The translations under genes were made by a program, and so were the position numbers. Of a stretch of DNA of 64,000 nucleotides, positions 41,270 through 50,591 are shown one piece after another. Location of the stretch: positions 320,001-384,000 of the forward strand of contig CAVTWJ010000023.1 of NCBI GenBank assembly GCA_963738405.1. The letters are read 5' to 3'. The notes beneath the pieces were generated by a model, which had not been told where the DNA came from, did not search any database, and saw only the letters and a program-made list of their open reading frames with translations. Source of the DNA: a candidate division FCPU426 bacterium (lineage in GTDB: Bacteria; Oederibacteriota; Muellerivitia; Muellerivitales; Muellerivitaceae). Numbering within the stretch: position 1 is the stretch's first letter; every line of letters starts with the position of its first letter.

Positions 41270-42253
41270 ATGAACAAAACCATTTCCATCGTCACCGGCG
41301 GGGCCGGGTTTGTCGGGTCCCACCTTTGCGACTTCCTCATCGCCCAGGGCCACCACGTGGTTTGCGTGGACAACCTGATTACCGGCAAGATGGAAAACAT
41401 CGCCCACCTGAAGCGCCATCCGCAGTTCCGCTTCGTCAAGCGCGACGTCATCAAGCGTCTTCCACGTTTCCTCAGCAACATCACCCGGGGCTTTCCTCGG
41501 TTCTTCCCTAAGGCCGACTACGTGTTCCACCTGGCCTCCCCCGCTTCCCCGGTGGGCTACATGAAAAACTCCATCCAGACCATCCTGGTTAATTCCATGG
41601 GCAGCCTCCAGCTTCTGGAATACTGCCGCAAGCGAAAGACCAAGTTCTTGTTCGCCTCTACTTCGGAAGTTTACGGAAACCCCAGCGTCCATCCCCAGGT
41701 GGAAACCTACTGGGGCAACGTCAATTCTTTCGGCCCGCGTTCCTGCTACGACGAAAGCAAGCGCCTCGGCGAGGCCATCATTTATGAGTACATCCACAAG
41801 TTCGACGTAGACGCCCGCATCATCCGCATCTTCAACACCTACGGCCCCCGGCTGAACGAAAACGACGGGCGGGTGGTTTCCAACATGATCACCCAGGCCC
41901 TGGCCGGGGAGTCCTTGACCCTCTATGGGGATGGGTCCCAAACCCGCAGTTTCTGCTACGTCTCCGATTTGGTGCGGGGCATTTGGGCCGCAATTTCCAC
42001 GCCCGGAACCAAGGGTGAAATTTTCAATCTAGGAAATCCCCAAGAAACCAGCATTAAGGAATTCGCCCATACGGTCCTTGGCCTTTGCGGGTCCAAGGGG
42101 GCGAAATTGGTGCAAAAACCCCTGCCCCAGGACGACCCTATTCGGCGTAAACCCAATATCGCCAAAGCCTTAAAGACACTTAAATGGAAACCCGTGGTTT
42201 CCTTAAAAGAAGGCCTGGGTTACACCATTGATTATTACCGCGGTAGAATATAG
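41270..42253 (+). CDS. UDP-glucuronate decarboxylase-like SDR epimerase/dehydratase
   Basis: TGGAGFVG, HLASPASP, STSEVYG, YDESK, RIFNTYGP, QTRSFCYVSD. Confidence 0.9.
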   Translation: MNKTISIVTGGAGFVGSHLCDFLIAQGHHVVCVDNLITGKMENIAHLKRHPQFRFVKRDVIKRLPRFLSNITRGFPRFFPKADYVFHLASPASPVGYMKNSIQTILVNSMGSLQLLEYCRKRKTKFLFASTSEVYGNPSVHPQVETYWGNVNSFGPRSCYDESKRLGEAIIYEYIHKFDVDARIIRIFNTYGPRLNENDGRVVSNMITQALAGESLTLYGDGSQTRSFCYVSDLVRGIWAAISTPGTKGEIFNLGNPQETSIKEFAHTVLGLCGSKGAKLVQKPLPQDDPIRRKPNIAKALKTLKWKPVVSLKEGLGYTIDYYRGRI

Positions 42254-42373
42254 TCTTAGCAGGCTTCACCCATTGAAAAATGTAATAACAGAAGCGCGCT
42301 AACCCCAATATCGGTTTTTGATCTTGGGGTAAAACAATAGACCAAATAGGCCAATTCCCAACCTGAGGTTTAC

Positions 42374-43909
42374 ATGAAAACCGCCGTTCTCTACCCCCCC
42401 TTCCGCAAAGACGGGGAGCTTCCCCTCTTAACCCAAAACCGCCATTTAAAGTTCTCCAAGACCCTCGAAGTTCGCATTTTTCCCTTGGTGCCCGGCCACT
42501 TGGCCACCAACTTGAAGCACTTAGGCCACGAGGTTCTTTGGCTAGACGGCATCAACCGTCGCATGTCGGACGAAGAATTCGAGAAGTATCTGGACGATTT
42601 CAAACCCGAGATCGTCTTTTTGGAAACCAAAGCTCCTGTGGTCAAGCGCCATTGGGCTTATATCGCCGAACTCAAGACCCGCTACCCCGAAATGAAAATC
42701 GTGCTCATGGGCGACCATGTCACCTATTTCCCCGCTGAATCCATCGAGAATTCAAAAGTCGATTACGTTATCACCGGCGGGGATTACGACATCGTGGGCC
42801 GAAACCTGGTCCAGCATCTTTCCGGCAAGGAACCCCTGGGGCCCGGCCTCTGGTTTAGGGACACCGAAGGCAAACCCGCCACCACTGGTCCCCACAAGCT
42901 CATGGACGCCCTGGATACACTACCTTTCATCGACCGCGTTTTGACCCGCTACCGGGACTACGGCGAGGCCTATCTGCTCCGTCCCACCGCCTATATCCTC
43001 ACCGGCCGAGGCTGTGGAGCCTCCGAACATTCGCCCGGCGGTGTCGGCCTCTGCACCTTCTGCATCTGGCAGCACGCCCTCTGGGGCAAAACCGCGCGCC
43101 TTCGTTCGCCCAAAAACGTGGCGGAAGAAATGGAAATCTGTATCAACGAGCACGGGGTTTGGGAATTTTTCGACGACAACGAATCGGGCCCCATCTACAA
43201 CATCGAATGGCTGAAGGAATTTTATAAAGAACTCACCGCCCGCAAACTCTTGGGCCGGTTCCAGTTCTCCTCCAACTGCCGGGCCGACACTTTGAATGAA
43301 GAAGTGGTGGATCTCTTGGTCAAATGCGGCTGGCGCCTTTTGAAGATCGGCCTGGAATCGGGCTCCGACTACACCATCAAGCACTTGGCCAAATGCGAAA
43401 CCGTGGATCTCATCAGCAACGGGGTCAAGATGGCCAAGGACCGCGGCTTGAAAGTGCTCCTGACCACCATGATGGGCTACCCCTGGGAAACCGAAGAAGA
43501 CGTACGCAAGACCTACGAAGTCACGAGGGAGCTTTTATATTACAAAGTCCGCGCCGGAGATTGCATGCAAGCCTCGGTCGTGGTGGCTTACCCGGGCTCG
43601 CCGCTTTGGCGGGAATCGGTCAACAAGGGCTGGCTCTTGATAGGGGAGAAGGATTACGAAAAGTACGACATGAGCCATCCAATATTAAAGTCGCCGGTGA
43701 ACGCGAGCGAATGGGCGACCAAGACGTGGAATCTGATGAAGCACCCTAAATTTGTATTTGGCCAGTTATTAACGGTTCGTTCCTTCAGGGAACTAAATCT
43801 ATTATGGCGGGGATTGCAGTCCTTGCTGGGACACGTTCAAGATTATGGTGATCCCTTGCCGGAAAGCGCAGATCCTTATGCCACGCCCCAAGCCGCAGCG
43901 TCCCACTGA
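42374..43909 (+). CDS. B12-binding radical SAM protein with a non-canonical Cx12Cx2C motif
   Basis: N-terminal cobalamin-binding-like domain; GRGC-GASEHSPGGVGL-CTFC; GLESGS. Confidence 0.8.
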   Translation: MKTAVLYPPFRKDGELPLLTQNRHLKFSKTLEVRIFPLVPGHLATNLKHLGHEVLWLDGINRRMSDEEFEKYLDDFKPEIVFLETKAPVVKRHWAYIAELKTRYPEMKIVLMGDHVTYFPAESIENSKVDYVITGGDYDIVGRNLVQHLSGKEPLGPGLWFRDTEGKPATTGPHKLMDALDTLPFIDRVLTRYRDYGEAYLLRPTAYILTGRGCGASEHSPGGVGLCTFCIWQHALWGKTARLRSPKNVAEEMEICINEHGVWEFFDDNESGPIYNIEWLKEFYKELTARKLLGRFQFSSNCRADTLNEEVVDLLVKCGWRLLKIGLESGSDYTIKHLAKCETVDLISNGVKMAKDRGLKVLLTTMMGYPWETEEDVRKTYEVTRELLYYKVRAGDCMQASVVVAYPGSPLWRESVNKGWLLIGEKDYEKYDMSHPILKSPVNASEWATKTWNLMKHPKFVFGQLLTVRSFRELNLLWRGLQSLLGHVQDYGDPLPESADPYATPQAAASH

Positions 43910-44534
43910 AGTCAAAGCCGCCCCGGCAGTTCCCCCTAAGGACGCCACCCCCACCTGGAAGGTTGCGACCGCCCTGGGACTTTTGGGCTTCTGCCTGCTG
44001 GTTTTGTTCCTCTTTTCAAGCGGCATCCTGAGGGACCTCTTTGCCGGCCCCAAGGTTCCCCTTCCACGCCAGGTGGCGCAGGTTTCCCTGGGCCAGACCC
44101 TGGACGAGCTCCAACCTCATTTCACCGGCTTGAAGAAACTGCTTCGGCCCTACAACAACGATCCCGATTTCCAGATCGCCACCCTCACTTCCCAAAACGG
44201 CCTCACAGGGGCCACCAAGGCTGACTTTATCTTTTTTCATAATCAGCTTTACTTCATTTCCGCCGAATGGGACGGGGCCACCCCCAAGACCCTTCCCATC
44301 GAGGATTGGGCCCATCAATTCCGTCGCTGGAACAAGGCCGGCAACACCCAAAACGAGAAATTGAACAACCAGGTGAACCTAAAGGAATGGCATTTCGCCG
44401 ACGGCGCCACCGAGATGACCTTGATGGACCTCGACTACCCCGGCAATATTCAAATGCTCCAACAGCTTCGCGACGCCTCCAATTCACCCGCCCAGGCGGC
44501 CTTTGCCAAATACCGCTTAGAGACCGACGGCTGA
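43878..44534 (+). CDS. Hypothetical single-TM membrane-anchored protein
   Basis: One hydrophobic helix near the N-terminus; host-like codon usage. Confidence 0.65.
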   Translation: MPRPKPQRPTEVKAAPAVPPKDATPTWKVATALGLLGFCLLVLFLFSSGILRDLFAGPKVPLPRQVAQVSLGQTLDELQPHFTGLKKLLRPYNNDPDFQIATLTSQNGLTGATKADFIFFHNQLYFISAEWDGATPKTLPIEDWAHQFRRWNKAGNTQNEKLNNQVNLKEWHFADGATEMTLMDLDYPGNIQMLQQLRDASNSPAQAAFAKYRLETDG

Positions 44535-44602
44535 CCATTATTTACAGGTCTTGAGATTCCAGGTACCGCAACGTAAGCTTTATCCACTAGGGGAGAAACC
44601 AC

Positions 44603-46081
44603 ATGGCTGAAAATTTAAAGGTCCTTTTGGTCAATCCCCCCCGCGTCAAGGGCATGCCGGTTGTACGCGAGGAACGCTACGAGCACCGCGACGTGGGCTC
44701 GGTATATCCTCCCCTTTCCATCCTTCAAGGCGCCGCATCCCTCAGACAAGCCGGATACGACGTTCAGGTTTTGGATTGCAACGGTTTTGACCTGCGGCTG
44801 GAAGAAGTAGGCCGGGCCCTTAGCTCTTGGCAGCCCCATCTGGTCGCGGCCCGCATGGCCTTTGACTGCCAGGAAGAAGACTTGAAAGTTCTCCAGATCG
44901 CCAAGGCCGCCGTCCCCAATTGCGTCACCGCCATCCGCAACAAAATGATTTCCGAGGTTCCCTGGCTGTTGGAAGAAATAGTCAAGCGGCCTGAGGTGGA
45001 CTTGTACATCATGTCCGAATTGGACGTGGTTCTTCCCGCCCTGGCCCAAGTGATGCAATCGGCCCTTTCCGAAAAGGGCGAGTTGCCCGCCTATTCTTCC
45101 GAATGGTTCTCAGGCGTGTCCGGGCTGGCCTACCGGGGCAAGAACGGCTTTTCCAAAACCCTCCAAGCTCCTCTGATGCAGGTAGAGGACGCTCCCTTCC
45201 CGGCTTACGACCTTCTGCCTTCGGTCGAGCCCTATCACACGGGCGTCTTTGCCGATCACTTCGCCATGATCCAAACTTCCCGGGGTTGTCCCTTCGGCTG
45301 TACCTTTTGCGCCTACGCCCTGGAAAAATACCGCCCCCGCCCCCATCAGCACGTGGCTGACGAGTTGAAGTGGCTGAAAAAACAGTTCGGGGTTAAGAAC
45401 GTTCTTTTCTTCGACGATCTCTTAGCCCTTAATTCGGACCGCACCGCCGACCTGGCCGAGCAGTTGATTAAGGATGAAGTGAACATGCAGTGGGTTTGCT
45501 GTACCCGCGCCAACCTGACGGATGTGCCATCCCTCAAAAAAATGCGGCAGTCCGGATGCAAGGAACTGGCTGTGGGAATTGAGAGCGGGTCCGATGTGAT
45601 TCTCAACAACATCAACAAGGGCGTTTCAAAGGACGACATCCGCGCCTGCGCCAGCGCCTGCAAGGAAGCGGACATTCTCTTTTACGGCATGACCATCTGC
45701 GGGCTTCCCGGCGAGACCGAGGAAACCTGGCGTGAAACCATCAACTTCATCAAGGAAATCGATCCCTTCTATACCCAGTTCTGCTTCTCGACTCCCTTCC
45801 CCAACACCGAGATGTACACTTGGTACGAGGAAAAGAAATGCCTCAACCATAAGGATTGGAGCCAATATTCACCTCTCGCGCCCCAGCCTGTCGTGCGGAC
45901 CGAAGCCCTGACCTCGCAGGATTTGATCCGCCTGCGCCAGCAAGCCTACCGGGAAGTGCTTTTCCGCCCCAAGTACCTGCTCTCCAAAATCCGTTTAAAC
46001 GACCCCCTTTGGACCCTCAAGGGTGGTTGGGAAGTCGCCAAACGCGGCGCAGCCGTCTTGGCCGGCCACGACGTCCGTTAA
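44603..46081 (+). CDS. B12-binding radical SAM protein
   Basis: LLVNPP, YPPL, TSRGCPFGCTFC, GIESGS, GLPGET. Confidence 0.9.
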   Translation: MAENLKVLLVNPPRVKGMPVVREERYEHRDVGSVYPPLSILQGAASLRQAGYDVQVLDCNGFDLRLEEVGRALSSWQPHLVAARMAFDCQEEDLKVLQIAKAAVPNCVTAIRNKMISEVPWLLEEIVKRPEVDLYIMSELDVVLPALAQVMQSALSEKGELPAYSSEWFSGVSGLAYRGKNGFSKTLQAPLMQVEDAPFPAYDLLPSVEPYHTGVFADHFAMIQTSRGCPFGCTFCAYALEKYRPRPHQHVADELKWLKKQFGVKNVLFFDDLLALNSDRTADLAEQLIKDEVNMQWVCCTRANLTDVPSLKKMRQSGCKELAVGIESGSDVILNNINKGVSKDDIRACASACKEADILFYGMTICGLPGETEETWRETINFIKEIDPFYTQFCFSTPFPNTEMYTWYEEKKCLNHKDWSQYSPLAPQPVVRTEALTSQDLIRLRQQAYREVLFRPKYLLSKIRLNDPLWTLKGGWEVAKRGAAVLAGHDVR

Positions 46082-46192
46082 AAACACACCCGCCGAAATA
46101 AATCCAATTCACTCAGACCCAAAGGTCTAAAATAGTCCTGTCGCTGAAGTTACCTTTCCCACCCTCTCCTAAATCCCACCAGGAGGCTTTTC

Positions 46193-46477
46193 ATGGCAAC
46201 CTTTTTCATGTTCGGAAAATACACCCCTGAATCTTTAAAACAAGTCAGCGAAGTCCGCACCACCAAGGTCTTGCACCAAATTAAAAAACTGGGGGGCCGG
46301 GTGAAGGATGTTTACGCCCTGCTTGGAAGATTTGACTTGGTTCTGATTGTGGATTTGCCAAGCGTTGAATCGGCCATGAAAGCTTCTTTAATCTTGAGCC
46401 GCCTAACGGGGATTGGGTTCACCTCTTCGCCCGCCATCAAGGTCGAGGAATTCGACAAGCTGGCCACGGCACTGTAG
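46193..46477 (+). CDS. GYD-domain small protein
   Basis: 94 aa with LGGRVK..Y..LGRFDLV; AGGAGG RBS. Confidence 0.8.
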   Translation: MATFFMFGKYTPESLKQVSEVRTTKVLHQIKKLGGRVKDVYALLGRFDLVLIVDLPSVESAMKASLILSRLTGIGFTSSPAIKVEEFDKLATAL

Positions 46478-46560
46478 AGGTCCGCCGGCACTTTACGACT
46501 TCACCGACTATTAAGTGTTAAATGTTGGCTTGGTCCTGTTTTTATTTCGCCTTAATTTCT

Positions 46561-47304
46561 TTACCTTTGCCAGGGCCTTTTGAGCCGATGGATTGGTTTG
46601 CAGGTCAATGTTTGCAGTACGACACTTCCACCGTTTCTCATTGTGAGTCTGAATCCTTGAATACCATTCAGTACCGGGTGACTCTGGACGACGATATGGA
46701 ATTCATATCCAGCGCCACGAAACGTAATTAGATTATTTCCGGTTGATCTCTGTCGATATGGTTGGGAAACGACCGCACGAAAGCGGTCATTTGGATTGAT
46801 TTTATAAATAAGGATGGGGTAAGTCGCTTCGTCCAGAAGAGCATCATCAAAATACATTCCCCGTAATTTCCGGTAATGTTTTTCGCCCAACAACGATGAT
46901 TCTTCACCGGTTTCCGCCAAATGACCACGAAGCATGACGCTGAAAACAAAATTTTGCATTTTCTTGAAATCTATCAACGTTAGGACAATGCCTGGCTGGT
47001 CGCCGTGCTGGGTCATAACCATACCTATTTTTTCATCTGCGATATTTTTCACTGTGGAATCAGCGGGCTTTTTTCCTAAAACAAGACTTGCAAACCGATC
47101 ATCTTTCGCAAAACGTTCCTCACAAGTCCAACAAATGATCGATTTCTTGTAACCACTTTGAGTTATTTTTAGGCTTTGTTGTTTGGGGTCGTAGGTGTAA
47201 TGCGCCTTATTTTTCCCAAATGCAATCTTATGCATCCACTCAGGAATGACGTGGCTATTCGGATGGAATTTCGGTACATCCTGTTCGCAAAACGGACACC
47301 TCAT
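46561..47304 (-). CDS. Putative HNH-like (His-Me finger) zinc-binding protein
   Basis: CPFC...SHVIPEW...CWTCE pattern; AT-rich DNA. Confidence 0.6.
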   Translation of the reverse strand: MRCPFCEQDVPKFHPNSHVIPEWMHKIAFGKNKAHYTYDPKQQSLKITQSGYKKSIICWTCEERFAKDDRFASLVLGKKPADSTVKNIADEKIGMVMTQHGDQPGIVLTLIDFKKMQNFVFSVMLRGHLAETGEESSLLGEKHYRKLRGMYFDDALLDEATYPILIYKINPNDRFRAVVSQPYRQRSTGNNLITFRGAGYEFHIVVQSHPVLNGIQGFRLTMRNGGSVVLQTLTCKPIHRLKRPWQR

Positions 47305-47420
47305 TACTAACTCCAGAAAACAAATGAATCATTTAACATTCAATCCGCCCCACACTCTACGACTTCAGCAACTTTTAAGTGTTATATGTTGGCCGGGCCC
47401 TGTTTCTATGTCATTTATTT

Positions 47421-47669
47421 TCATTTCATTTGATCTATCTCAGCTTGAATACCTGCTCTATCTACATGTTCCAGGTGTTGAATAAATTTCTCAAGGGACG
47501 CTAAGTCTTTTTTCACAAGCTTGAAAGTCGGCTTGGGTTCTTCCATTTTTTTGCCAAAGGTTAGAAAGCCGCCTGAACTGGCAGCCCCTGCCACCTGTGT
47601 AATGATTCCCTCTTTTAATAATTCTCCTGGATCGTTGACGTGATACGACATATCCAAAAACGAACTCAT
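47421..47669 (-). CDS. Small hypothetical protein (82 aa)
   Basis: ATG 47669 preceded by AGGAG; reads MSSFLDMSYHVNDPG... Confidence 0.55.
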   Translation of the reverse strand: MSSFLDMSYHVNDPGELLKEGIITQVAGAASSGGFLTFGKKMEEPKPTFKLVKKDLASLEKFIQHLEHVDRAGIQAEIDQMK

Positions 47670-47849
47670 CTTCCTTCTCCTTCTGCGCGCAAGAATGAAC
47701 AACAAACAAAAAGTAAGGTGCTTCGTCCATCCCTTCAATACTTCGGGGGATAAAACACCTGTCAAAAGAAGGAAAAATTTTACTTAGTTTTCACCTAGAA
47801 ACGCCAAAAGACAGAATATCTACCCAATTGTATGTATTGTAGAGGCGGT

Positions 47850-48869
47850 TTATGGAATTCTTGACCGAATATAACTCTCTGAAAGAGGTTCTGTATATTT
47901 TATCTTTACCAGCTTTACTTTATTCCTTTTACATAACTTTTCTTTTCGCTTGTCACGGTCCTTCAATTTAATAAATGCTTTCTCGCCGCCCCAGATAGAT
48001 ATTGGATGATAGTGTTGTTGTCCTTGATACTCAAAAGCCAAGTGTTGATGCGGCACATAAACGTCAAGTTCCAATCTCTCAAGCCATTCAGGGCGATAAT
48101 GAAAAATTACATCTTCTCCTTTGAAGATTTGTCTGATTATCTGAAAAAGCAATGTTTCGGAAACCCAGGCCTCCCCTACGCGTTTAAACCCAAACTCTGT
48201 CCGAACTTCATTTTCAATGAGCCTTGTAAGATTTCGGGTTGCACGTGTGTTATTGCGGCTTAGCTGTTTTTGTTCTTTCAGCAATTCTTCACGTTCACTT
48301 GGAGGTTTTAAGGCATACCCCCTCATCTTTACAGTGTGCTCAAACAATGGTTCGCGGTGTTTTTTCAATTCTGCTATCAATTTTTGGTATTCGGGAGGAC
48401 AAACGTCTGGAAGAAAATTGTATGTCGTGCGTTTTATTCCGAAGCGAAAAAAAGTTTGGTTAATGTACCATCCGAAATTTTGAACGAAATCACCGCCGTA
48501 CATGGGATGGCAATAAATCAATGTCGGTGGCTGTAAATTGCAACGGTGACACAAACCCTCTTTGAAATTAAATAGTGAGATTGGATCTTTTGGATTTTTC
48601 ATGGAAAGCTCAGCTAATTTGGTAGGAAAGTCATAGCTGTCAAGGGGTGCCATTCGCAACGGATAAGCATTTAAGGTTTTTTTCACGGAACGCAGGCGAA
48701 CGTAATGGTCAATCGGCGACTTGGAACACGAGCAAAGAAATATATTTCCGTCATGTGAATTTGAAAAAGCAAAAAAAGTGCCGTAATGGTTCGGATAGTG
48801 AACCATTGGGAGTGGGAGCGATTCTTGGTAAATTCCGCCTAGTGAAACTGCTCGTTTCAGTTTTCGCAT
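47850..48869 (-). CDS. Cys-rich protein with a C-terminal PD-(D/E)XK-like (DUF559/Vsr-like) nuclease domain
   Basis: C-terminus SETLL...LELDVYVP...AFEYQGQQHY...RDKRKEKLC...LVKI; N-terminus CSC, CHRC, YCHP. Confidence 0.7.
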   Translation of the reverse strand: MRKLKRAVSLGGIYQESLPLPMVHYPNHYGTFFAFSNSHDGNIFLCSCSKSPIDHYVRLRSVKKTLNAYPLRMAPLDSYDFPTKLAELSMKNPKDPISLFNFKEGLCHRCNLQPPTLIYCHPMYGGDFVQNFGWYINQTFFRFGIKRTTYNFLPDVCPPEYQKLIAELKKHREPLFEHTVKMRGYALKPPSEREELLKEQKQLSRNNTRATRNLTRLIENEVRTEFGFKRVGEAWVSETLLFQIIRQIFKGEDVIFHYRPEWLERLELDVYVPHQHLAFEYQGQQHYHPISIWGGEKAFIKLKDRDKRKEKLCKRNKVKLVKIKYTEPLSESYIRSRIP

Positions 48870-48976
48870 GTTAGATATGGCTTTCCACCATTCAATTTAT
48901 CCAGCCAGCCCTGGGGGGCTTCAGGATTGAATTTAGCCAAGATTTCCCCCTTAGTTGATGAGCGAGAAAGGGTCTT

Positions 48977-49370
48977 GTTCACCGGAAATCGGGTTTAGTT
49001 TACTTAAATGGGGAAAAATTTCACCGGAAACACCGTATCCTTCACCGGAAATTCTGGCTGTTTACCAGGCAGTGCGTAGTTCTTCACCGGAAAACCGGTC
49101 TTGTTCACTAGAAATACCTTACTTTCACCGGGTAAGGGGTGCTGTGGTTCACTGGAAAACGCATGCGTTCAACGGAAATAGGGCGGCCGTTCAATGGAAA
49201 TTCCATGGGTGTTCAACGGAAAATGGAACTCGTTCAATGGAAACTTCGGCCTGTTCAACGGAAATTTTGGCTTGTTCAATGGAAATGGTGTAGGCGTTCA
49301 ATGGGAAATCGCCCGTGTTCAATGGAAATACCGTAACCTTCAATGGAAAATCGGGCCTGTTGACTGGAAA
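48977..49370. repeat. Array of about 19 units: 11-bp core TTCAMYGGAAA plus 9-13-bp variable spacer, period ~21 bp
   Basis: Cores start at 48978, (48999), 49020, 49041, (49061), 49083, 49104, 49124, 49148, 49168, 49190, 49212, 49233, 49254, 49275, 49297, 49318, 49339, 49360; brackets mark degenerate copies. Confidence 0.92.
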
Positions 49371-49499
49371 CGGGGATATGCCATTCGCCTATATCCACTC
49401 AAGCGGAGAAGGGGAAAATCCACTTAAATCCCACCCCAAAGAACCTCTTTCCCATGTGGCCCGGAAGCCCCTTCTTTAATACAATCATCCCGCTAAACC

Positions 49500-50591
49500 A
49501 TGAAACCACCCAAATCCACCCCCCCACGCCGGTACTTGATCCTTTCCGCCAAGGGCTGGGGCACAGGTAGTGCCCTAAGGGCCTACTACATCGCCGAAGC
49601 CTTGAGGCAAAAGGGCCATACCGTCCACTTTCCCCCGCCGCTCCCCACCCTGCCCGGCTGGATCGACATGGCCCTTTCGAGCCTTTATTACCTCCTCTAT
49701 TCCCTTTTCGTCAAAACCGACCTGGCTTTCTGTGTCAAACCCTACCCCATGGCGGTGCCCGCCCTTTGGGTTCAACGCCTCAAGGGTGCAAAGGTAATCT
49801 TCGACGTGGATGACCTGGATTACGCTTATAGCCGCGGCGTCTTTTTAACCTTCCACTGGTGGCTTCAAAGGCCCTGGCCCGATTGGGCCGATGGGGTGAC
49901 CTACCACAACCCCAAGCTAAAAGACGCGATCATGAGCGACTTCAAGGTTTCCTCTTCCAAAATCCGCCAGGTCCCCCAGGGCGTGGATGAATCCATCTTC
50001 AACACGCTTCCCATAAAGGAAGCCGACATACCGCCCGGCGTGGCGGATTGGGTAGCAAAACAAAAGGGACCCCTGCTTTGCTTCACGGCTCACCTAAACG
50101 TGGCTTGCGATTTGGGCCCGGCGCTCGAAGCTTTCAAACTTATATTGGAATCTTCACCCAAAGCCAGCCTCTTGATCGCAGGCGGTGGGCCGGATGAAAA
50201 CAAATTCCGTGACCAGGCCCATAGCCTGGGCATAGCGGGTTCCCTTTATTTCACCGGGCTCATCACGCCCCAACAGGTTGCGGCCTGTTTGAAACTTTCG
50301 GACGAAGTGCTGGTTTACTACGCCGACACCCCCGCCAACCGGCACCGTTCTTCCATGAAGCTTCGGGAAGCCCTGGCCTGTGGTGCTAAGGTGGTGGCCA
50401 CCCGGGTCGGCGAGGCTGCGGCCTTTAAAAAGGCGCTCTTTTTATCCCCGGCGGAACCCAAAGGCTTCGCTAAGGCCCTTTTGGGGGCCCTGAAGGCCAA
50501 AAAAACTTCCCGGCCAGGGGCTATACTGGTAAAAAAGTGGGGTTGGAAAACCTGTGTGGAACCCCTTGAAAAGGAATGGAATTCCCTCTAA
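49500..50591 (+). CDS. GT4-like glycosyltransferase
   Basis: FDVDD, PQGVD, SSMKLREALACG. Confidence 0.8.
   Translation: MKPPKSTPPRRYLILSAKGWGTGSALRAYYIAEALRQKGHTVHFPPPLPTLPGWIDMALSSLYYLLYSLFVKTDLAFCVKPYPMAVPALWVQRLKGAKVIFDVDDLDYAYSRGVFLTFHWWLQRPWPDWADGVTYHNPKLKDAIMSDFKVSSSKIRQVPQGVDESIFNTLPIKEADIPPGVADWVAKQKGPLLCFTAHLNVACDLGPALEAFKLILESSPKASLLIAGGGPDENKFRDQAHSLGIAGSLYFTGLITPQQVAACLKLSDEVLVYYADTPANRHRSSMKLREALACGAKVVATRVGEAAAFKKALFLSPAEPKGFAKALLGALKAKKTSRPGAILVKKWGWKTCVEPLEKEWNSL

Follow-up and report, generated by a model that had tools for sequence, protein, structure and literature searches.

Does an array of short direct repeats with variable spacers specify guide RNAs or provide a row of protein-binding sites, and to which gene does it belong? 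The question is raised by a locus in the genome of a candidate division FCPU426 bacterium (G000), which we analysed within a stretch of 64,000 nucleotides, hereafter the window (G000:C23:320001-384000); positions given without a contig are those of the window. The initial annotation had placed the array next to a gene for a 339-aa nuclease, and proposed either a new type of guide or antitoxin RNA array for this nuclease or a phased protein-binding array.

Results

A phased array with diverged spacers

A pattern search allowing at most one mismatch places 17 TTCAMYGGAAA cores at 48978..49370, all on the plus strand; 15 fit the core pattern exactly and the remaining two carry one mismatch. Two degenerate slots, at 48999 and 49062, occupy 42-bp gaps of the array, which makes the earlier count of about 19 copies a fair one. 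The cores follow each other in steps of 20-24 bp, plus three of 42-44 bp, the third of these gaps holding the one-mismatch core at 49124. The mean period is 21.2 bp, that is, two helical turns, in line with the ~21 bp originally given. With this relaxed pattern, the 64-kb window contains 41 matches, compared with 23.1 +/- 4.6 in shuffled sequences (0 of 100 shuffles reach 41), and the 24 matches outside the array are scattered through the 64 kb on both strands.

Each unit consists of a core of 11 bp and a spacer of 9-13 bp, and the cores are same-strand, non-palindromic direct repeats. Mean information amounts to 1.72 bits per core column versus 0.39 per spacer column, and pairwise identity to 0.85 for cores versus 0.33 for spacers. 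The description of the spacers as mostly unrelated has to be qualified: TRF detects higher-order units of 42-43 bp with 77-82% matches, and spacers of units i and i+2 are more alike (identity 0.42) than those of neighbours (0.32). The spacers therefore look like diverged duplicates rather than independent acquisitions. The two halves of the array differ as well, with TTCACCGGAAA nearest the gene remnant described below and TTCAAYGGAAA in the far half.

The distance from the first core to the start of the 339-aa gene (48869, minus strand) is 108 bp, matching the ~110 bp reported before. On the other side, 130 bp separate the array from a plus-strand gene (49500..50591; Pfam Glyco_trans_1_4, E 8.1e-14), the first of a glycosyltransferase / LPG_synthase_TM operon, which is a neighbour that nothing in our analysis links to the array. 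BLAST of 48890-49480 against phage and plasmid collections gave no match, and spacers of ~10 nt do not permit a meaningful search for protospacers. Scanning 48700-49650 for promoter-like and terminator-like sites returned one of each type, the promoter-like one being located within the 339-aa gene on the minus strand; these numbers do not exceed those of shuffles and are uninformative for the array.

The 339-aa gene is a neighbour of the array

The 339-aa gene (47850..48869, minus strand) belongs to a sporadically distributed, uncharacterised family. Its product contains invariant Cys/His residues and a conserved E-x-D ... E-Y-Q-G-Q-Q-H motif, and Atlas gives a weak lead to DUF559 (0.87). Searches of the protein against Pfam and PADLOC gave no match, nor did a PDB sequence search with a 28-sequence profile, and PADLOC recognises none of the genes of the island in which it resides. 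We therefore treat its assignment as a nuclease as a lead only, based on the conserved motif and the DUF559 hint. The 366 homologs (43-50% identity) are spread over widely differing taxa (Halobacteriota, Psychromonas, Kiritimatiellae, and Opitutaceae are among the source names). All of them lack a Pfam domain, and the gene was not found in 60 relatives.

A CRISPR- or TIGR-like guide array, or an antitoxin RNA array, serving the 339-aa protein would be in keeping with the proximity of 108 bp, with the variable spacers, and, as far as this lead goes, with the nuclease-like motif. However, the co-occurrence of arrays and homologs that this reading predicts was not found: at seven homolog loci in other phyla (Bacteriovoracaceae, Gammaproteobacteria, Syntrophorhabdus, Pontibacter, Chitinophagaceae, Saprospirales, Clostridia), no phased array is located upstream or within ~3 kb, the maximum chain being 3. 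None of the seven has the 247-aa or 114-aa gene of the window beside it. CRISPR arrays consist of direct repeats of ~23-55 bp with unique spacers of similar length, in contrast to the core and spacer lengths observed here, and no Cas-related Pfam or PADLOC family is present among the neighbours of the array. The initial annotation was also right that TIGR-Tas offers no partner: the Nop-domain family PF01798 has no match anywhere in the genome (90.66% complete), in contrast to four control archaea, which do score. A genuine CRISPR with a ~36-bp repeat is located elsewhere. In addition, the array and the 339-aa gene are separated by a remnant of a different gene, arrays of this type track that other gene family, and spacers are duplicated in sister arrays (all described below). 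We consider a guide or antitoxin RNA array to have a practically negligible probability; the 339-aa gene is a neighbour of the array, not its partner.

Two further repeats of the genome are recorded here in their own right. The canonical CRISPR (C23:63348-65564, outside the window) has the repeat GTTTCAATCCCGTCTAAGTCCGGGCACTACAAGCAAC, a period of 72-73 bp and a length of ~2.2 kb, with TRF rows of at most 21.5 copies. At C10:29868-30307, a 17-bp tandem repeat, CCGTAGTGGCACAATCC, is present in 25.9 copies at 100% identity.

A truncated gene next to a foreign island

When read on the minus strand, the 108 bp that separate the array from the 339-aa gene can be aligned with the 5' portion of paralogous genes on contigs C14, C12, and C5, from the leader through the Shine-Dalgarno region and the TTG start to the first codons. 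We built a DNA profile from the leader and first 20 codons of three intact paralogs and searched it against the whole genome, where it matches the window at 48984-48895 (nhmmer E 1.9e-5; model positions 5-88 of 106). The remnant (48895..48984, minus strand) comprises a 5' leader, an SD-like AAGGGGG, a TTG start, and the first ~15 codons. Apart from the three sequences from which it was built, the profile also detects the paralogs on C4 (E 6.6e-6) and C9 (E 0.0071), and all further genome-wide matches have E values of at least 0.5. From the TTG at 48940, a 27-codon remnant ORF (48857..48940, minus strand) overlaps the start of the 339-aa gene in another frame. It reads (M)AKFNPEAPQGWLDKL, to be compared with MAKYKPKSRSWLDSL in C14, MGRFNPKTKDWLDQL in C12, and the family consensus ..SLxWLDxL, after which the frame diverges and stops. 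At the protein level, an HMM of the N-terminal domain ranked the remnant second among six-frame peptides of 46000-49600 (E 3.2, not significant), and the DNA-level profile was needed for its detection.

In place of the body of the truncated gene lies a low-GC island (46479..48894), which contains the 247-aa, 114-aa, and 339-aa genes and has a GC content of 0.36-0.44, compared with 0.55-0.60 in the flanks. Three congeners keep both flanks, corresponding to window 42005-46477 and to the sequence from about 49540-49550 on, and the exact left edge of the conserved synteny is a 94-aa GYD-domain gene (46193-46477; Pfam E 1.7e-15). Between these flanks, the congeners carry 2.0, 1.4, and 9.1 kb of other content, from which arrays of this core are absent. 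The GC content of the island and the synteny comparison indicate that it is foreign and, together with the leader and codon remnant, that an array-gene module once sat at this site. Of a gene of the family, only about 15 codons are left, the foreign island, which brought in the 339-aa gene, having taken the place of the gene body; the array, the leader, and these first codons survive. The array has thereby been orphaned in cis, and the gene lost to the island, rather than the 339-aa gene, was its real partner. The latter may now be read from the promoter and leader of the truncated gene.

Throughout the genus, this site, bounded by the GYD gene and the glycosyltransferase operon, is a variable hot spot rich in repeats. 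In the congener G003 (C6; L094:298-900), it is occupied by dense GAATCGATTC palindromic repeats (169-bp unit x2.1, 92% matches, sub-periods of 10-21 bp), and at the same site CGAATACCACC repeats adjoin a gene for a 666-aa membrane protein.

Arrays accompany a multi-copy gene family

Arrays are located on contigs C12 and C14 as well, 75 and 98 bp, respectively, upstream of two paralogous genes on the minus strand (700 and 671 aa); the window array is positioned in the same way relative to the 339-aa gene. The gene family is multi-copy and present in 15 of the 61 genomes searched (G000 included), almost solely within the same taxonomic family. G000 encodes six paralogs with an N-terminal ~130-aa 'WLD...' domain, type (a), and five with a ParB-like N-terminus, type (b). 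ParB_N scores above the Pfam cut-off in two of the latter (34.5 and 41.8 bits) and below it in a third (18.8 bits), and the remaining two give weak HTH matches only. Genome-wide TRF finds an upstream ~21-bp array at all six type (a) paralogs, with the gene-sense cores TTTCCRTTGAA (twice), GGGTAAACA, CTGTTAAAC, ACCGGCAGAA, and TCGGTAAACA. One of these six cognate pairs is the intact CTGTTAAAC array upstream of an HTH/4-TM gene on C4.

The same arrangement recurs in relatives. We examined 38 N-domain matches, each with 700 bp of upstream sequence, using a detector of 9-mer chains (at most one mismatch; steps of 19-24 bp or double). Phased copies, 5-22 in number and ending 13-217 bp before the match, are present at 34 loci; those without a detected array are L066 and the three weakest protein matches (L082-L084). 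Among random 760-bp windows of G000, the detector reported at least five copies in 7 of 400, five of which are coding proline/threonine-type repeats and two other orphan arrays. The period across the 34 arrays is 21.37 +/- 0.25 bp, a spread far narrower than the 19-24 bp admitted by the detector. Counting G000 and relatives together, 40 of 44 loci have tandem direct repeats upstream of their partner gene. Array and membrane protein form a two-part module that is lineage-restricted and recurrent in this bacterial family, and of the two readings initially offered, the phased protein-binding array is the one supported by this ~21.4-bp-phased family upstream of ParB-type-HTH genes. Given that the repeats are two helical turns apart, all sites face the same side of the DNA. 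In the literature searched as full text, we found no description of such proteins or arrays.

In seven loci of G025 (L048, L063, L067, L071, L075, L080, L081), a TTGACA-N17-TAnAAT element is located on the far side of the array and points to the gene. As this sigma-70-like promoter points through the array, the arrays are probably transcribed as a leader. The promoter position therefore leaves a small probability for an RNA-level role, in which a long 5' leader would have its core read by an RNA-binding factor or be processed to small RNAs, and it fits roadblock-type autoregulation as well. Against the RNA-level role, neither strand of the window array folds better than shuffles (z +1.64, +2.19), Rfam has no match over the whole window, a period as constant as that of the 34 arrays is a property of double-stranded DNA, and the co-occurring domain is a ParB-type HTH. 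We thus regard an RNA-level role as very unlikely.

Several observations relate to the upstream regions and arrays of other genes. Paralogs of the ParB_N type have no arrays and have a common upstream TTGTCCGATTTTG-like motif (G000 regions examined: C1:103301-103700, C23:148546-148945, C5:32878-33277, C22:48633-49032, C19:27606-28005, C9:24549-24948). In array-linked genes of G025, the far-side TTGACA-N17-TAnAAT is followed by CCGATTTTGGGGA. These elements could represent a promoter or start-site element that the genes have in common, or the target of a regulator that they share. Arrays with the related CCGTTGAA core are found at two damaged homolog genes, one with an internal TGA (G025:C19, L063) and one split across frames (G002:C21, L077), and gene loss with array retention may be common. 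A 21-bp-period array with the unit ATTAAGCGAAGATTTATTTTC (L047:2262-2383; G000 C2:197761-197882) lies ~170 bp upstream of a 94-aa minus-strand gene (L047:1805-2089) whose product, judged by eye, resembles a ribbon-helix-helix (CopG-like) protein, and an array whose core is reverse-complement-related to ATTAAGCGAAGATTTATTTTC lies between unrelated genes (L046:2330-2450; G000 C1:41829-41949). The ATTAAGCGAAGATTTATTTTC arrays look like a second array-plus-orphan pair involving a different kind of DNA-binding protein.

The partner protein combines a ParB-type head with predicted membrane helices

The N-domain alignment contains 36 sequences, six from G000 and 30 from relatives; L063 (internal TGA), L074, L077, L080, and L081 (split or short), and L082-L084 (weak) were dropped. 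It describes a conserved helical domain that is variable where the recognition helix of an HTH is expected, and in type (a) paralogs it starts with the WLD motif at residue ~1. In hhalign, the N-domain matches the type (b) paralogs (97.8%, E 7.6e-13); the aligned region, their residues 107-229, immediately follows ParB_N and is the one in which Pfam gives a weak HTH_ParB match. ParB_N itself is detected by Pfam in none of the six type (a) paralogs of G000. A word-indexed protein search with the N- or C-domain returned only the paralogs of this genome and one other protein, and an exhaustive HMMER search was needed. When run with the N-domain against 1.84 billion representatives, it yielded 209 proteins at E <= 0.001, of which 61 at E <= 1e-30. 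Among the weaker matches tested, 14 of 15 carry ParB_N (13 above the curated cut-off), and none of the five strong matches tested has any Pfam family, ParB_N included.

Structure prediction points in the same direction. The AlphaFold model of the head (mean pLDDT 82.6) has seven helices, and its best Foldseek matches in the PDB are the DNA-binding domains of Noc, ParB, Spo0J, KorB, SopB, and VirB, with Noc chains at the top and the KorB/SopB structures 1r71, 8qa8, and 3mkz among them. The scores are weak when taken alone (TM ~0.5 over 100-114 columns, E 0.025-0.1, none <= 0.001), and a PDB sequence search with the N-domain profile returned nothing usable (best E 0.12, unrelated proteins). As judged from sequence comparison, the head is a predicted ParB-type HTH DNA-binding domain that lacks the ParB CTPase domain.

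The middle of the protein contains about four hydrophobic segments, and by this hydropathy count the partner is a predicted integral-membrane protein. For the C-terminal 272 residues, a fold in two parts is predicted (pLDDT 86.9), one matching PH-like domains and the other the PDZ domains of CtpA, CtpB, and DegS; whole-model scores are low, and the PDZ assignment is accompanied by weak Pfam and weak PDB sequence matches. No catalytic domain was found in the partner protein.

The N-domain tree is poorly resolved, with 18 of 33 inner branches open. In this tree, a same-core protein from another genus (L071) is placed apart from those of C12 and C14, and L052 and L065 form a close pair with different cores. 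Core and head therefore do not simply co-diverge. A recognition-helix 'code' was considered and not established, as the Asn of same-core proteins is also found with other cores and the tree is poorly resolved.

One core is common to five arrays

The TTCAMYGGAAA core recurs in five arrays of G000, all on different chromosomal contigs. Besides the window array, which has 16 copies by the genome-wide pattern and 17 by the window search with at most one mismatch, these are C2:116421-116621 (10 copies in strict 22/20 alternation), C12:80259-80396 (7 copies) and C14:240939-241098 (8 copies and one degenerate), both with an intact paralog downstream, and C18:7544-7786 (6 copies at ~42-bp spacing, with decayed units between them). 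Spacers are duplicated in the sister arrays too, in units of about 42-43 bp at 91% matches (a 42-bp unit in C2). Outside the five arrays, the strict core occurs 19 times compared with ~25 expected from a 4th-order Markov model, and no further pairs are seen. Among 60 relatives, a single exact core pair was found (in G025, corresponding to the upstream array of L063), and the three congeners have none.

An intact partner gene is missing beside three of the five arrays, which weighs against tying the array to a nuclease gene. The C2 array sits between two plus-strand genes and the C18 array between convergent genes; given this inconsistent geometry, a purely promoter-operator role does not fit all five. 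No remnant of a family gene is seen at the C2 array. At the C18 array, a leader remnant that appeared plausible by eye in an alignment was dropped, as nhmmer gave no match. A phage-type integrase gene, a small gene resembling an excisionase-type HTH (by eye), and oddly composed ORFs adjoin this orphan array (C18:3408-7411, L045); foreign DNA is thus found where the partner gene would be expected, as in the window.

Discussion

What the window adds to the module is the orphaned state of an array, the truncated gene beside it, and the single core common to five arrays. We consider it probable, if by no means certain, that the window array is the orphaned cis half of such a module and now serves as a docking site in trans. 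According to the mechanism that we propose, many heads would bind the cores head-to-tail along one face of the DNA and build a large, membrane-attached nucleoprotein complex. In some relatives, the array has a sigma-70-like promoter on one side and the start codon on the other, and there this complex would also throttle transcription of its own gene. The multitude of phased sites would substitute for the CTP-dependent spreading that the lost ParB_N domain would provide. At the window, the C12 and C14 proteins would dock in trans, holding the locus at the membrane, damping the captured promoter that faces the 339-aa gene, or both. That these two paralogs possibly still bind the window array is suggested by the identity of the cores.

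Two intact same-core paralogs exist in the genome, and binding proteins are therefore presumably present. Their existence, together with the 15 of 17 cores that are still exact and the higher information content of cores versus spacers, speaks against an array of the same origin that has since become an inert relic, a decaying minisatellite to which nothing binds to any effect. This reading nevertheless has evidence on its side: the partner gene is truncated, two slots of the array are degenerate and two cores carry mismatches, and the same-core array on C18 has lost every second unit, which demonstrates that orphan arrays do decay. Moreover, the conservation of the window cores may simply reflect a recent truncation. 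We assign the relic a low, though appreciable, probability.

Iteron origins and type Ib/II centromeres typically have direct repeats at ~21-22 bp (PMC5016525), and the window array is located in a variable island; it has therefore to be weighed as well whether the array is the iteron set of a replication origin or the centromere of a plasmid-like element that has integrated. Pfam detects no Rep, ParA, or ParM family among the window genes tested, the same core recurs in arrays on five chromosomal contigs, and the predicted partner is an integral-membrane protein rather than Rep or an RHH protein. While iteron origins have an adjacent rep gene, the adjacent conserved gene at the module loci is that for the membrane protein. 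Taken together, an origin or centromere appears very unlikely to us. Type II/Ib centromeres (parC/ParR of R1 and pSK41; parS/omega of pSM19035; PMC5016525) are tandem direct repeats upstream of an operon that overlap or flank its promoter, and their own DNA-binding protein forms an autoregulating higher-order complex on them. The module likewise has tandem direct repeats upstream of the gene for its putative binder. In contrast to the small RHH proteins and ParM/ParA motors of these plasmid systems, its ParB-type HTH head is fused to a predicted membrane anchor and its loci are present in multiple copies on the chromosome. Beside the module loci examined, we saw no motor gene, the Pfam scan for ParA/ParM covering the neighbours in the window.

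A second precedent is Noc of Bacillus subtilis, which belongs to the ParB family and whose recruitment of DNA to the membrane is controlled by a CTP switch; Noc attaches through a CTP-switched amphipathic helix and spreads from single 16-bp NBS sites (PMC8429893). Noc and the module have in common a ParB-superfamily HTH head, specific chromosomal sites, and a membrane-associated nucleoprotein complex, the last being a prediction for the module. They differ in that the module proteins are predicted to be integral to the membrane (~four hydrophobic helices), that the array-linked type lacks ParB_N, and that the site of each paralog is private and located ahead of the gene encoding it. Many phased direct repeats may stand in for spreading of the Noc type. 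Compared with Noc-NBS and with iterated centromeres, the module is distinct in its combination of a predicted integral-membrane anchor, the missing CTPase, private non-palindromic direct repeats for each paralog, and chromosomal multi-copy occurrence.

Other relatives of the head provide further points of reference. The palindromic ~16-bp parS/NBS-type site of the ParB/Noc/KorB superfamily is not seen at the module, the cores of which are non-palindromic direct repeats. In KorB/OB of RK2 and SopB/sopC of F, too, a ParB-family HTH protein recognises repeated or dispersed operators, and it represses transcription; however, these systems use inverted-repeat sites and soluble dimers that keep the CTPase-type N-domain, whereas the module has direct-repeat cores and a protein predicted to be membrane-embedded. 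The sopC locus is an array of 43-bp units. Its sites are short inverted repeats within longer iterons (PMC5016525). One-component regulators of the ToxR/CadC type, in which a membrane segment tethers a cytoplasmic, N-terminal DNA-binding domain that binds repeats at target promoters, are compatible with the architecture of the module protein, in which the head is followed by four hydrophobic segments (by hydropathy), but the head is ParB-type rather than an OmpR-type wHTH and the even number of helices would put the PH-like/PDZ tail in the cytoplasm.

An apparent CRISPR-like candidate has turned out to be one half of a lineage-restricted module of a DNA-site array and a membrane protein. For annotation, short-repeat, variable-spacer arrays near nuclease-like genes should be checked against phased docking arrays before they are called guide arrays. 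The module also suggests that large membrane-attached complexes can be built by multiplying sites instead of by spreading, with a ParB-type head that has no CTP switch. In the organism itself, modules turn over: foreign DNA replaces the gene, the array persists, and one core would be able to serve several loci. We further speculate, though we hold this broader view to be doubtful as a whole, that the family has diversified integral-membrane ParB-HTH proteins without CTPase, the private two-turn-phased arrays of which would pin many loci to the membrane and replace CTP-driven spreading; newly acquired foreign genes that come to lie behind an old promoter, here a nuclease-like gene, could then be captured and throttled by orphan arrays such as the one in the window, which would provide extra anchor or silencing points.
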